NCBI GenBank assembly: GCA_965218095.1
Contig: OZ244587.1
Span: 1,792,001 to 1,856,000, forward strand
DNA from: Candidatus Poribacteria bacterium
Lineage (GTDB): Bacteria > Poribacteria > WGA-4E > PCPOR2b
Direction of reading: 5' to 3'
DNA length: 64,000 nt
Shown: piece after piece, positions 14,797 through 20,672 of the stretch
How the letters are laid out: each line of letters starts with the position of its first letter
Position numbering within the stretch: position 1 is the first letter of the stretch
Position numbers and translations under genes: made by a program
The notes under the pieces: model-generated
What the model was told of the DNA's origin: nothing
Databases searched by the model: none
The model's input: the letters and a program-made list of their open reading frames with translations, nothing else

Positions 14797-14934
14797 AGAT
14801 CTATCTCGGCTTTCTTAAATTACAAATCAAATCGGGTTTAATCCAGTGTTGGTAAGGCTTTAGACTGCATTTCAGTCAAAATTATGACAAAGCCGAGTTA
14901 TTTGCTAACCAGCCTATCTATAAGGAAAAGAAAC

Positions 14935-15792
14935 ATGCTTGATGAACATCATCTTCAGCATCAGATTACTGAAGAACAACTTCAACAACTCAACGGAGAA
15001 GGTTATTTCATTGTCGAAAATGCGCTGCCGGATGACCTTGTGGAGACACTCGAAAGGCGCGTCGATCGCATCCACCAGGAACATTTGGAGTCGGGGTATG
15101 ATCCATACACGAAGTCCGAGATGACGCCACACAAGAACTTCTTTTATCCCAATTTTCTTGGCAGAGACTAGCTTTTCGTCAACCTGCTTGATTGGTATAA
15201 GACCTTCCCGAAGGTTTGGGGCATCCTCGGTTGGAACATCTACTCGTACCATTCTCACTTAATCATCATGCCGCCGCGCCTGCCTGAAGAGCGCAACAAG
15301 CCAAAGCCACTCGGCTGGCATCAAGATAGCGGATATGTCAACGTGGAGACGGAAAGCTCTCCACGCCCCCGCTTATCATTGAAGATTGTCTTCTGGCTTT
15401 CCGATTGCTCAGAGCCGGGACGCGGCAATTTTTACATTATTCCCGGTAGTCACCTCTGGGATACACTCGACCGGCCGAGCGATGGGGCACTGCCCGAAGA
15501 CGCAATGTCTGTCTGTTGTAAGCCCGGCGATGCGGTCTTCTTTGATCGGCGACTCTGGCACGCTCGTAGCGAAAATGACTCCGACATTACTCGGAAGGGG
15601 CTCTTCTATGGGTACGGTTATCGTTGGCTGCGTTCCAAGGATGACATGACCATTCCACAAGAGCTCTTCAAGAATAACGATCCAATCCGGCAGCAATTAC
15701 TTGGTGGCGGCACAGATGCGAACGGACACTTCTCACCAAAAGATGAAGATGTGCCGCTGAAAGTCTGGCTTGAAGAACATGGAATCATCTAG
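14935..15792 (+). pseudogene. PhyH family dioxygenase with in-frame TAG at 15169-15171
   Basis: FLGRD*LFVNLLDWYKTFPKVWGILGWNI continues in frame into the ORF at 15268; WHQD, IIPGSH, GDAVFFDRRLWH. Confidence 0.88.
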
Positions 15793-16930: not shown

Positions 16931-17363
16931 TTATGCACCAACGTTTGCTTGTAGATAATCAACGATGTGTTGACTAAACGTCTCAAAATCGGTAACGCAC
17001 CTTTGTAGGAACTGATAGATTAGCTCATGGTCGACAGTCATATACCGATGAACAATCACGTTTCGTAGCCCCGGCATGCCAGTGAGCTCCTGTGCAAAAT
17101 CTTGAGGCAGGATGCCGTGTCCACCAAGTCCGAGTATTGCAGATCTACTGTCGGGCGGCTGTTCCAGGTCGCCACCGATAAGCAGATGATTTGCAATGTC
17201 AATCACACACTAGATTGCCGTTTGCAGCGCATAACGAATCATCGATTGATAATTGCGATCTGCTACCGCCTCATCATAACTCAACTGCTGGTAAGTACGG
17301 AGATCTTCGGTATATTCCGAAAGCGTTTGTAACAGGTCTTGGACAGTTTGCGGGTCGACTATA
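16931..17363 (-). pseudogene. HepT/DUF86 HEPN ribonuclease toxin, in-frame TAG at 17212-17210, start apparently ATA
   Basis: ALQTAI*CVIDIANHLL...GLRNVIVHRY (RxxxxH motif); the two ORFs are in the same frame. Confidence 0.85.
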
Positions 17364-17364
17364 A

Positions 17365-17802
17365 TTAATCGGGCTCGTTTCGGGAGTTTTGGGATTTGGC
17401 TTGCTGTCTTTTGAGGTAGTATTGCCATTGAAGGTCACGCAAAGGTTGGGTATCGACATAACGATTGAACGTGTCAACACAGAATGAGACATACCGCTGA
17501 TGTGGGTCATAGATGACAACGCCGTGACGCACGACTTGAAAAGACAGCAGCGGTGGGGCGTTGTTCAGCAGTGCAACATCGATTGCGTCTCGTTGGAAAA
17601 TGCCAATGAGCTCGGTATTGAGGTCTACCACCCGTTGACTGTATTCCGCTTGAGGAATCTGATCAGATAGCAGAACGGCGATGTCGATATCAGATTCACG
17701 GTTTGTGGTGCCTTTCGCCTGCGATCCAAAAAGGTAGGCGAGGACGACATCGCTTGCATCAAAGAGAGATGTAAACTGTGGCTTGTATCGGTTAATATTC
17801 AC
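17365..17802 (-). CDS. MntA-type minimal nucleotidyltransferase antitoxin
   Basis: AYLFGSQAKG...SDIDIAV, IDVALLNNAPPLL; upstream of DUF86. Confidence 0.9.
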   Translation of the reverse strand: MNINRYKPQFTSLFDASDVVLAYLFGSQAKGTTNRESDIDIAVLLSDQIPQAEYSQRVVDLNTELIGIFQRDAIDVALLNNAPPLLSFQVVRHGVVIYDPHQRYVSFCVDTFNRYVDTQPLRDLQWQYYLKRQQAKSQNSRNEPD

Positions 17803-18056
17803 AGGGTTATTCCTTAGATTACATTAGAACACGGATTCAGTCGGATTTCGCGGAGGTTGCCCGCGTCGGTGGACAAGATTTGTGAAATCCGACGACATCT
17901 GCGATTCTATAAAGGTATAATAACACATCCGATAGCGAACCGACAAATGAATCAGGCAGTTCGTACACAGTGGATCTGATTGTAAATTTGCACCGTGTCA
18001 CCAACCTTCCGAAGGTTATTTTTACGTTTCACACATCACGTTTCAGGTGCAAACTC

Positions 18057-20177
18057 ATGAAACTGACAACCTTAGCGACATGCAATCTCAACCAATGGGC
18101 GCTCGATTTTGAGGGAAATTTGGGGCGGATTATCGAGTCAATTCAGAGTGCCAAGGAAAGCGGAGCACGCTATCGGCTTGGCCCAGAGTTGGAGCTCTGC
18201 GGCTATAGCTGCGAGGACCACTTCCTCGAACAGGATACCTTTCTCCATTCTTGGGAATGCCTCGCCGAAATCCTCAAGGGCGATTTGACCGCCGATATTT
18301 TGTGCGATATCGGCATGCCGGTCATGCACAAAAATGTGCGGTATAATTGTCGTATCTTCGTGCTGGATGGAAAAATTCTCCTCATCCGCCCCAAGCTGAT
18401 TCTGGCGGCCGATGGAAATTACCGTGAAACGCGATGGTTTGCGGCGTGGCAACGTCCACGACAGTTGGAGGAACACTACTTGCCGCGCATGATTCGAGAG
18501 ATTACCGGACAGGAAACAATTTCCTTCGGAGATGCGGCAATCGCTACGCGGGACACTGCTCTGGCCCCTGAAACCTGTGAGGAGCTTTTTGCGCCAAATA
18601 GTCCACATATCTATCTCGGCTTGAATGGGATTGAGATTATCACAAATGGGTCTGGGTCACATCACGAACTTCGGAAACTCGATACGCGGTTGGATCTCAT
18701 CCGCAGCGCCACATCGAAAGGCGGCGGGATTTACCTCTACGCGAATCAACAAGGCTGTGATGGCGGACGGCTCTACTTCGACGGATGTGCGCTGATTGCC
18801 GTCAATGGAGAGGTTGTCGCGCAGGGGTCACAATTTTCGTTGAACGATGTCGAAGTGGTGACTGCTACGGTCGATCTGGAAGATGTCCGTTCCTATCGAG
18901 GCTCGAAGGTCAGTCGCGGAGTTCAAGCCAGCCAATCAGAGCCGGTGCCACGAGTCAACGCGGATTTTGATCTGACCACTGATGATTTTCGCCTTGCTCC
19001 ATGCCTCCCAATTGATGTACAGTACCATACGCCTGAAGAAGAGATCGCCTATGGTCCCGCGTGCTGGCTGTGGGACTACCTGAGACGTTCTGGAGCAGCT
19101 GGATATTTCTTGCCACTCTCCGGCGGTGCAGATAGTTCATCAGTCGCAACGATTGTTGGCTCAATGTGTCAGATGGTTGCAAAAGAGGCGAAAGCGGGCA
19201 ACCAGCAGGTCATCCGAGATGCGTGTCGAATCACTGGAGCGGATGAAGATACCGACTATCTTCCGACGGATGCGCGAGAATTCGCCAATCGGATCTTTTA
19301 CACATGCTATATGGCGACTCAGAATAGCTCAAAGGCGACACGGGACCGCGCGAAAAAACTGACCAATCAGATCAGCTCTTACCACCTGAACGTGAATATC
19401 GATTCGGTCGTCGCTGCCATGGTCTCCCTTTTTGTGCGTTTGACCCGGAAGACACCTCAATTCAAGGTGGAGGGTGGAACGGAGGCGGAGAACAATGCAA
19501 TGCAAAATATTCAAGCCCGTCTTCGTATGGCCCTCTCCTATCTATTGGCGCAACTGCTGCCGTGGGTGCGGGGTAAACGCGGAACGTTGCTGGTATTAGG
19601 CAGTGCAAATGTAGACGAAAGCCTGCGCGGCTATGTGACAAAATACGATTGCAGCAGCGCGGACCTGAACCCAATCGGCGGAATTAGCAAGACAGACCTC
19701 CGCCGGTTTTTGCGATGGGCGGCGGAGAACCTTGGCTACACCGCACTGGTCGATGTGATCAAAGCCCCACCGACAGCAGAACTTGAGCCGATCACCGAGA
19801 CGTATATGCAGGAGGATGAGGCGGACATGGGGTTGACTTACGATGAACTCAGTCGCTTCGGAAAGCTGCGGAAGATTGATCGATGTGGTCCCGTAAGCAT
19901 GTTTGAGAAGCTGGCCCATGAATGGAATCATCTCACGCCCCATGAAGTCGCCGAAAAGGTCAAACGCTTCTTCTACTACTACTCAGTCAACCGCCATAAG
20001 ATGACAACCCTCACTCCCTCGTACCATGCTGAATCGTATTCTCCCGACGATAACCGATTTGACCTCCGCCAGTTCCTTTACAGTGTCCGCTGGGGGTGGC
20101 AGTTTCGCAAAATAGATCAGCTTGTCGAGCAGATGGAGAGTGAAGTGAATAAGCCAATTGACAAATCAGCATATTAA
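18057..20177 (+). CDS. nadE: Glutamine-dependent NAD+ synthetase, eukaryotic (Qns1/NADSYN1) type
   Basis: Nitrilase domain (GPELE, RPK, CEEL) plus synthetase domain ([31 protein letters not shown]); NQWALDF and [16 protein letters not shown] signatures. Confidence 0.95.
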
Positions 20178-20211
20178 AGCGGAAATCCCGGATGACATCT
20201 ATACTGCCCAC

Positions 20212-20350
20212 TATACTGCCCACCGCCAGAAACTGCGCTTTTTGGCTGTCATTCTGAGGCTTTACGAAGAATCTCAGCGCAAGAGATCCTTCACTGCGTT
20301 CAGGATGACGGGCGCCTCCAAAAGCGCAATTTGACGCGGTGTTGAGTATA
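20212..20350. mobile_element. MITE-like TATACT...AGTATA element (copy B, inverted) with internal GTCAT-type REP
   Basis: Ends homologous to 5361-5485; cargo at 20247-20310; 12-bp tandem duplication CTATACTGCCCA at 20199-20222. Confidence 0.7.
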
Positions 20351-20672
20351 TTGCAAGTTTCTGCGTAATATTCACATTATCACGTTTTACATTTTAGGCA
20401 TCACGTATGATGGTGGGTTCGAGGTATGCTAACTTTTGGGAATTCTTGACTATTAGCTCGTTTGCAGGAAATTGTCGAGGCATCAGCAAACTGGCGTGTG
20501 CGCGTTGGTATCCGTAAAAGAGGAATGGAGATGTTTCGAGTTGATGGACTGATCGCATAAAAGAATTGACTCAGCAGTGCAGCCCTATATCCTCAATGAT
20601 GTAGAGCTTTTTTTGTTTTTATACTCAGTTGGCCCACCGAACTTGAAAAGGTTATGTACACAGCAATTACAA

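Follow-up and report, generated by a model that had tools for sequence, protein, structure and literature searches.

A eukaryote-type NAD(+) synthetase in the chromosome of a Poribacteria bacterium, shared across its order and with some Chloroflexota

The 64,000-nucleotide stretch of DNA analyzed here (the window; positions 1,792,001 to 1,856,000 of contig OZ244587.1 in the Candidatus Poribacteria bacterium assembly GCA_965218095.1) carries a nadE gene for a two-domain, glutamine-dependent nicotinamide adenine dinucleotide (NAD(+)) synthetase that resembles the eukaryotic enzymes NADSYN1 and Qns1. The open reading frame (ORF) extends from 17970 to 20177 on the forward strand, and translation from the ATG at 18057 yields 706 residues with no internal stop, the stop codon ending at 20177; the gene has no introns. 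We consider 18057 the likely start because at least 55 homologues share the N-terminus of the window protein (its first 11 residues or a sequence like them) and because an AGGTG sits 7 nt upstream. An initial annotation, made from the sequence alone, had described the gene as intact, intron-free and set between bacterial genes and repeats, and had called its product eukaryote-type on the basis of seven quoted protein blocks (118 letters in all, not reproduced here). All seven blocks occur verbatim in the translation, and the description of the locus is borne out by the 706 open codons, by neighbouring genes for HepT/MNT, alcohol dehydrogenase (ADH), DAO and BNR-repeat proteins, and by a 145-bp element beyond the stop.

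To which family the protein belongs is indicated by its similarity to enzymes of known structure and to named homologues. The best match among PDB sequences is human NADSYN1 (6ofb; 960 bits, E 5.8e-288, window residues 4-696 aligned with 6-698), followed by the Cytophaga hutchinsonii enzyme (3ilv) with 219 bits and then by that of M. tuberculosis (3dla) with 79 bits, so that the yeast/human character that the initial annotation had ascribed to the blocks is upheld. The NCBIfam equivalogs for bacterial NadE remain below their cut-offs (NF002730, 139.1 bits vs 473; NF010588, 122.2 bits vs 479). Identity of the window protein to 24 named eukaryotic sequences is 57-66%, and the copies from Poribacteria and Chloroflexota taken together are 55-67% identical to each eukaryotic group (55-62% to animals; 59-65% to oomycetes, Rhizaria and Amoebozoa), the range between eukaryotic supergroups being 53-64%. 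With NadE of the 3ilv type (Hymenobacter, Spirosoma, Vibrio plasmids) the identity of these bacterial copies is 26-33%, with NadE of other Poribacteria 23-26%, and with the M. tuberculosis (Mtb) type 21-25%; among the named material, the interval from about 33% to 55% is empty of bacterial sequences. A profile built from eukaryotic representatives only gave the bacterial proteins scores as high as those of its own members. In a library clustered at 50% identity, the top-ranking representative (P0122, ~60-61% identical) groups with animals, and the nearest clusters in a protein atlas belong to Chordata, Ascomycota and Arthropoda. Every membership feature of the NADSYN1/Qns1 lineage that could be tested is present in the window protein, which, judged by its sequence, belongs to that eukaryotic lineage and lies outside the ordinary bacterial NadE lineages. 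At 60% identity to a solved structure, the fold can be taken as fixed.

The residues expected of a working enzyme are in place. The sequence SGGADS at residues 355-360 is a PP-loop, SGGxDS being the motif of N-type ATP pyrophosphatases. The catalytic and tunnel residues of human NADSYN1 given in the text of Chuenchor et al. 2020 (PMC6946656), namely Glu45, Lys114, Cys175, Glu125, Tyr51, Tyr123, Glu176 and His203, map respectively to Glu44, Lys113 and Cys174 (catalytic), Glu124 (the second glutamate), Tyr50, Tyr122, Glu175 and His202 of the window protein, and all 13 of the 13 catalytic, tunnel and PP-loop positions that were checked are invariant in 81 of 81 bacterial copies. According to the same text, Tyr123 and His203 are conserved across eukaryotes, with Phe and Pro in prokaryotes. 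This eukaryote-typical pair of constriction 1 is present in the window protein as Tyr122/His202, is likewise invariant in the 81 copies, and makes the protein human-type by the residue criteria set out there (PMC6946656). The dN/dS of the gene against four relatives is 0.045-0.079, pointing to strong purifying selection, and we infer that the product is an active, essential-looking NAD(+) synthetase of the organism. In such an enzyme the N-terminal domain would hydrolyse glutamine through the Cys174-Glu44-Lys113 triad and Glu124, the ammonia would travel via an internal tunnel to the C-terminal PP-loop domain, and nicotinic acid adenine dinucleotide (NaAD), supplied by a bacterial-type NadD, would there be adenylated by ATP and then amidated to NAD+.

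The source genome is a single closed contig of 6,350,489 bases, 93.9% complete by marker genes, and the window nadE is its sole strong match to PF02540 (93.6 bits). A second, bacterial-type nadE, a possibility for which the initial annotation had left room, was looked for in the genome and is absent; the only other PF02540 matches are two weak ones, scoring 34.7 bits in a frame of 311 residues and 22.9 bits in one of 528, which probably represent other PP-loop enzymes. NaAD can be made, since the genome also has a bacterial-type nadD (175 bits, cut-off 112). The composition of nadE is that of its surroundings: against the 30 long ORFs of the window, its GC content is 0.524 (mean 0.530 ± 0.027) and its GC content at third codon positions 0.574 (0.587 ± 0.051), and its relative synonymous codon usage correlates with that of the other ORFs at 0.747 (0.61 ± 0.16). 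The gene is native to the bacterium and is no contamination.

To see how widely the gene occurs, we took the 120 best matches among 5.8 billion protein clusters and scanned one genome per prokaryotic species for relatives. The 120 matches are 70-100% identical to the window protein, except for a tandem-duplicated Lupinus gene model (P0045) at 54%, and organism names are attached to 11 of them (6 Poribacteria, 4 Chloroflexi/Chloroflexota and the Lupinus model). The genome scan returned 190 stretches that encode a relative, the best 80 of which comprise 55 from Poribacteria, 24 from Chloroflexota and 1 unassigned, at 69-87% identity. Of the 139 other genomes from the four families of the window's order (f1-f4), 138 have the gene, closed chromosomes being frequent among them; the single miss is a 260-contig assembly. 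Of 11 genomes from the Poribacteria families f5-f9, 0 have it. Identity to the window protein falls from family to family (f1, 81-87%; f2, 76-79%; f4, 71-76%; f3, 67-72%), consistent with vertical descent. In 5 of 5 sampled f1-f4 genomes nadE is the sole PF02540 match at E 1e-10 or better. Five f5-f9 genomes carry ordinary NadE, either as a two-domain protein of ~544-585 residues, as a single-domain protein of 267-269 residues or as a clustered split pair, with 22-25% identity to the window protein over the full length and 24.7-32.9% over shorter partial matches. Because the sampled f1-f4 genomes carry only the eukaryote-type gene and those of f5-f9 keep ordinary NadE, the former appears to have replaced the native enzyme at about the origin of the order.

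Among Chloroflexota the gene is scattered. An even draw across the phylum gave 300 further genomes, 0 of which have it and 40 of which have weak, Mtb-type matches (one of these in a genome flagged unpublished, on which nothing else here rests); in the order of one carrier it occurs in 1 of 56 genomes, and in the order that includes Leptovillus and Ardenticatenaceae in 25 of 121. Record titles place several Chloroflexota carriers in activated sludge or other non-sponge sources. The gene is an order-wide trait shared with some Chloroflexota and is not specific to this genome.

For phylogenetic placement we used 49 of 150 cluster representatives (those with at least 90% coverage in one BLAST segment and fewer than 850 residues), reduced to 25 or 13 in later trees, together with 21, 14 or 9 of the 80 bacterial loci, all 80 of which entered the conservation count. 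A profile made from six deep representatives recovered, of their own relatives, P0193 and two further sequences only; it also returned 45 source-labelled eukaryotic proteins, 44 of them with an organism name, of which 24 were used (10 animals, 8 fungi, Heterostelium, Amorphochlora, 3 oomycetes and 1 EukProt transcript) and 21 near-duplicates were left out; Lupinus was added as the first 640 residues of a 1201-residue model whose gaps look like gene-model errors. Trees were computed with FastTree (71 rows), in quick searches under LG+G4 (89 and 51 rows) and LG+C20 with posterior mean site frequencies (PMSF; 65, 40 and 52 rows), and in a careful search under LG+G4 (48 rows). In all runs the bacterial copies form a single short-branched clade, with support of 93-99 in the Shimodaira-Hasegawa-like approximate likelihood ratio test (SH-aLRT) and of 99/97 in the careful run. 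The same run recovered Opisthokonta (100/99), Metazoa (100/99) and Fungi (98/94), all of which exclude the bacterial copies, as well as oomycetes (100/100), and the gene tree otherwise follows eukaryote phylogeny. The bacterial clade joins an unresolved backbone with Amoebozoa, plant-like groups and groups resembling SAR (stramenopiles, alveolates and Rhizaria), outside Opisthokonta, by a connecting branch of ~0.08-0.11 substitutions per site that is shorter than the Opisthokonta stem. The protein thus branches on the eukaryotic backbone and, at 21-33% identity to the bacterial types, does not nest in ordinary bacterial NadE clades, such nesting being the outcome that the initial annotation had held to count against its claim. 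Within the bacterial clade, Chloroflexota sit among Poribacteria lineages and leave Poribacteria paraphyletic (94/82, careful run), which suggests that the gene passed from one phylum to the other, with Poribacteria as the probable donor. A further 21 profile-search matches all fall within Poribacteria, Chloroflexota or named eukaryotic groups. One representative, P0324, is loosely placed with the plant sequence. The alignment contains no indels that separate bacteria from eukaryotes or unite the bacteria with a eukaryotic subgroup.

As a test less prone to long-branch attraction we used conserved columns polarised by outgroups, the PRK13981-type NadE of Poribacteria serving for identities and column polarity only. 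Derived states common to the bacterial copies and all eukaryotic groups occupy 15 columns with a strict outgroup and 38-56 with the 3ilv type only (56 when 3 of 4 outgroup sequences agree). No polarised column has the outgroup state in the bacteria and the derived state in the eukaryotes, none is changed in the bacteria only, and at 3-4 columns the outgroup state turns up in just one eukaryotic group (Metazoa or oomycetes). These columns, together with the lack of a separating indel, imply that the long stem of the eukaryotic type was complete before bacterial and eukaryotic copies split and that no eukaryotic stem follows this split. On the direction of transfer, this result and the distribution of the gene amount to an argument and are no proof.

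The initial annotation had offered two readings, a transfer from a eukaryote or a bacterial lineage near the one from which the eukaryotic enzyme came, and this pair is supported by the data, although the version in which a sponge host is the donor is disfavoured. We think it probable, with due reserve, that an ancient eukaryote-to-bacterium transfer displaced the native NadE; both the direction and the age of the transfer are what we infer. The ancestor of one Poribacteria order would have taken up the gene long ago from a eukaryote that was no animal host, the donor being either an offshoot close to the base of the eukaryotic radiation or a member of some slowly evolving lineage outside the present sampling. 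The acquired gene would have displaced the bacterial NadE, would have been inherited vertically under strong purifying selection, and would also have been exchanged with several Chloroflexota lineages. We favour export from a eukaryote because the bacterial range is narrow and patchy, because sister Poribacteria lineages have ordinary NadE, because the named material holds no intermediate bacterial forms, and because the gene is present in every sampled eukaryotic group. That the gene is instead a product of chimeric assembly or eukaryotic contamination, as the initial annotation had cautioned, is scarcely credible. Logan contigs from runs of three studies bridge the 5' junction (from 17716, 17725 or 17723 to 18343 or 18625) and extend to 20241, 64 nt beyond the stop; the best DNA runs may include the window's own source sample and would then not be independent. 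No listed short-read contig spans 20241-20321, just downstream of nadE, which could be taken for a faulty join, but this break coincides with the 145-bp repeat and its 41 matches in the genome. The gene moreover lies, without introns, on a single 6.35-Mb contig, closed as a chromosome; a Shine-Dalgarno-like sequence precedes it, its codon usage is like that of the host, 138 of 139 related genomes have it too, and its own genome has no other NAD synthetase. Recent transfer from a sponge, that is from an animal host to its symbiont, has in its favour that Poribacteria are best known as sponge symbionts, that the public runs containing the stretch include sponge metatranscriptomes, and that P0122 (60%) groups with animals. 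We nevertheless judge it very improbable, because the bacterial clade lies outside Opisthokonta. Metazoa and Opisthokonta both exclude it at 100/99, in trees that hold no named sponge sequence; uniting the bacteria with Metazoa costs 54.7 log-likelihood units and is disfavoured (p-AU 0.105 in the approximately unbiased (AU) test); identity to animals is lower than to oomycetes, Rhizaria and Amoebozoa; the gene extends across four families of the order and into Chloroflexota from activated sludge and other non-sponge sources; and the composition of nadE is fully that of the host genome.

A different source for the transfer has to be weighed against export from a eukaryote, namely that the NADSYN1 type arose in bacteria and entered the eukaryotic stem not long before the last eukaryotic common ancestor (LECA), with the Poribacteria/Chloroflexota clade surviving as the bacterial sister or donor lineage. 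Several observations weigh against our preferred direction and leave room for this one. An outgroup of five Mtb-type NadE from Chloroflexota genomes joined long unnamed branches or Metazoa, and one of four 3ilv-type NadE from plasmids attached inside the vertebrates, its stem measuring ~8 substitutions per site under the mixture model; with attachments that are implausible or unstable and a saturated stem, outgroup rooting is uninformative. When all eukaryotes were set against the bacteria plus the outgroup, the AU test gave p 0.504 with a log-likelihood difference of ~0, so that the bacteria are allowed as sister to all eukaryotes, eukaryote monophyly being as likely as the free tree. Rooting on the bacterial clade splits the eukaryotes approximately into Opisthokonta and the rest at a polytomy, which is compatible with a sister position, and even the 54.7-unit penalty on a clade of bacteria and Metazoa corresponds to a p-AU of only 0.105. 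The sampling is without named Discoba, Metamonada, Haptista, Cryptista, red algae and sponges, the 49 cluster representatives are only assumed to be eukaryotic, and the deep, long-branched ones to be protists, and the sole finished careful tree is the LG+G4 one, with a bootstrap not fully settled, the site-heterogeneous trees being quick searches. A bacterial source also gains from the attachment of the clade, in unrooted trees, to a backbone polytomy between supergroups and inside no named group; from the ancestral-like character of its sequences, each eukaryotic group being more similar to them than to the other groups; from their scores on the eukaryote-only profile, which resemble those of training sequences; and from De Ingeniis et al. 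2012, whose main text derives the eukaryotic branch from the bacterial two-domain branch (PMC3376133). It is burdened by the polarised columns, since 0 eukaryote-only derived states, vs 15-56 common to bacteria and eukaryotes, would leave the eukaryotic stem after the split with essentially zero length, and by the shortness of the joining branch relative to the Opisthokonta stem. The range of the gene (one Poribacteria order and scattered Chloroflexota, with ordinary NadE in sister Poribacteria) and the lack of named bacterial sequences between ~33% and 55% identity also count against it, as does the paraphyly of Poribacteria with respect to Chloroflexota, which means that one phylum or the other, if not both, must have received the gene. 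It would require a transfer immediately before the eukaryotic radiation and survival in only two phyla. We regard a bacterial source as possible but unlikely, and the stricter proposal that the Poribacteria/Chloroflexota enzymes are slowly evolving near-copies from the living sister, i.e. the donor lineage, of the LECA NAD synthetase as doubtful. Between export from a eukaryote and a bacterial source the present data cannot decide.

The neighbourhood of nadE (Table 1) is bacterial on both sides. Upstream lie two zinc alcohol dehydrogenases, a fragment of PhyH and a HepT/MNT pair; downstream, on the opposite strand, are a DAO oxidoreductase, a BNR-repeat protein and a TauE exporter. Among 80 related loci the upstream ADH, HepT and MNT neighbours are kept in 20, 13 and 14, respectively, all of them in Poribacteria. 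HepT and MNT together resemble a type VII toxin-antitoxin pair, and read depth suggests a multi-copy family. The upstream 95-residue ORF of the PhyH gene resembles, by eye, the missing N-terminal part of the protein, and the gene may be frameshifted or interrupted. The 145-bp element has 34-nt imperfect terminal inverted repeats that are 76% complementary, with 77 nt between the arms; about a dozen copies are near full length at 85-90% identity and some are without 63-72 nt. It looks like a dispersed repeat similar to a miniature inverted-repeat transposable element (MITE) or a repetitive extragenic palindromic (REP) sequence. The consensus scan for sigma-70 promoters upstream of nadE found 5 sites vs 2.8 ± 1.8 in shuffled sequence, and the match listed in the table is a weak lead and no evidence of function. 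A 210-nt contig in a sponge metatranscriptome (run X10) matches 19047-19256 with no mismatches, which gives a weak hint of transcription and no proof of it.

Table 1. Features of the nadE locus, in window coordinates
Feature	Position	Strand	Basis or remark
nadE/NADSYN1-type gene, two-domain glutamine-dependent NAD(+) synthetase, 706 residues	18057-20177, including stop	+	ORF, translation, Pfam, 6ofb match
N-terminal nitrilase-like glutaminase domain, residues 6-281	18072-18899	+	Pfam PF00795 CN_hydrolase, E 3.4e-43
C-terminal NAD synthetase (ATP pyrophosphatase) domain, residues 337-601	19065-19859	+	Pfam PF02540 NAD_synthase, E 3.8e-26
Putative Shine-Dalgarno-like AGGTG, 7 nt upstream of ATG	18045-18049	+	Read off the sequence
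Sigma-70-like promoter match ACGACA-18-TATAAT, 10/12, ~135 nt upstream of start	17892-17921	+	Consensus scan
HepT-like ribonuclease	16931-17206	-	Upstream of nadE
MNT/Pol-beta nucleotidyltransferase	17365-17802	-	Directly upstream of nadE
PhyH (phytanoyl-CoA dioxygenase), apparently split	14884-15171 and 15268-15792	+	Second ORF matches profile positions 109-212 of 213
145-bp inverted-repeat element just past nadE stop	20209-20353		41 matches in genome

In ten Poribacteria genomes the match to the window protein falls into two pieces (~4-310 and 310-697). In eight of them, all of family f3 (G057, G058, G060, G070, G079, G108, G111 and G126), the pieces lie ~70-110 nt apart within one open frame of 719-779 residues, as if the linker between the domains had received an insertion. 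In G112 the halves occupy separate frames of 358 and 391 residues on one contig and may represent either a split glutaminase/synthetase form or a frameshift, and in G116 the halves are on two contigs.

NAD synthetase is an essential, single-copy housekeeping enzyme, and here a whole bacterial order and scattered Chloroflexota run on its eukaryotic version in place of a bacterial one. The main text of De Ingeniis et al. 2012 (PMC3376133) distributes the two-domain enzymes over branches I-III, with eukaryotic branch II arising from bacterial branch I, and mentions transfers to a few Archaea; it names no bacteria with a eukaryote-like enzyme, its supplementary trees not being covered by this statement. 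Our guess is that 3ILV represented the eukaryotic branch II in that scheme in 2012. In the full-text literature, the supplements of PMC3376133 not included, we found no report of an NADSYN1-type enzyme in Poribacteria or Chloroflexota, and databases label the relatives merely 'NAD(+) synthase'. With the sequences described here a known kind of enzyme gains new bacterial members, and it is their occurrence that is unusual. If the source was eukaryotic, they would record the replacement, long ago and lastingly, of a core enzyme by one from another domain of life, for which the present sponge host offers no explanation. If the source was bacterial, they would mark the origin of eukaryotic NADSYN1, which the main text of De Ingeniis et al. 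traces only to 'a bacterial branch' (PMC3376133), and a donor lineage would be a concrete bacterial contributor to eukaryotic metabolic genes besides the mitochondrial ancestor. In practical terms, these intron-free and easily expressed bacterial enzymes could model the human-type ammonia tunnel, and annotation is affected in that the NCBIfam bacterial equivalogs miss the window protein.

Compared with eukaryotic NADSYN1/Qns1 (6OFB), the window protein is a collinear two-domain chain of ~700 residues without group-specific indels, in which the C-E-K triad, the second Glu, the PP-loop and the constriction-1 Tyr/His pair are all present. It differs in being encoded in bacterial chromosomes by an intron-free gene with a bacterial-type ribosome-binding site, and in that the bacterial copies form a clade of their own outside every named eukaryotic group. 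Human Trp179, described in the text of PMC6946656 as a gate of the glutamine tunnel, is a Phe in the window protein, as in non-animal eukaryotes. At this position (residue 178 of the window protein, nt ~18588-18590) Phe is found in the bacterial clade and in all non-animal eukaryotic groups, and Trp in animals and in the 3ilv-type, Mtb-type and other-Poribacteria outgroups; the Trp of animals may be a reversal.

The nearest ordinary bacterial type found is the NadE of Cytophaga hutchinsonii (3ILV), which is also present in Hymenobacter, Spirosoma and Vibrio plasmids and matches the window protein with 219-224 bits over ~94% of the length. It too is a two-domain, glutamine-dependent enzyme, but 38-56 conserved columns set it apart from eukaryotes and Poribacteria/Chloroflexota alike, at 26-33% identity. 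On the large Vibrio replicons listed as plasmids (NZ_CP015514.1 and NZ_CP062152.1) this nadE lies directly downstream of pncB and is at least 39% identical to the Hymenobacter and Spirosoma copies. A further arrangement is seen in a Poribacteria genome from outside the window's order (G008, locus L087), where a nitrilase-like ORF of 288 residues accompanies a synthetase ORF of 329 residues; it corresponds to the 'clustered' two-subunit NAD synthetase described in the main text of De Ingeniis et al. (PMC3376133). The Mtb type (3DLA/3SYT, NF002730) and the shorter PRK13981 type (NF010588) are the forms found in the other Poribacteria families and in 40 of 300 sampled Chloroflexota; they share the reaction and the domain order with the window type but are only 21-26% identical to it, and by the text of PMC6946656 Phe130/Pro204 of the Mtb type stand in the place of the Tyr/His pair.

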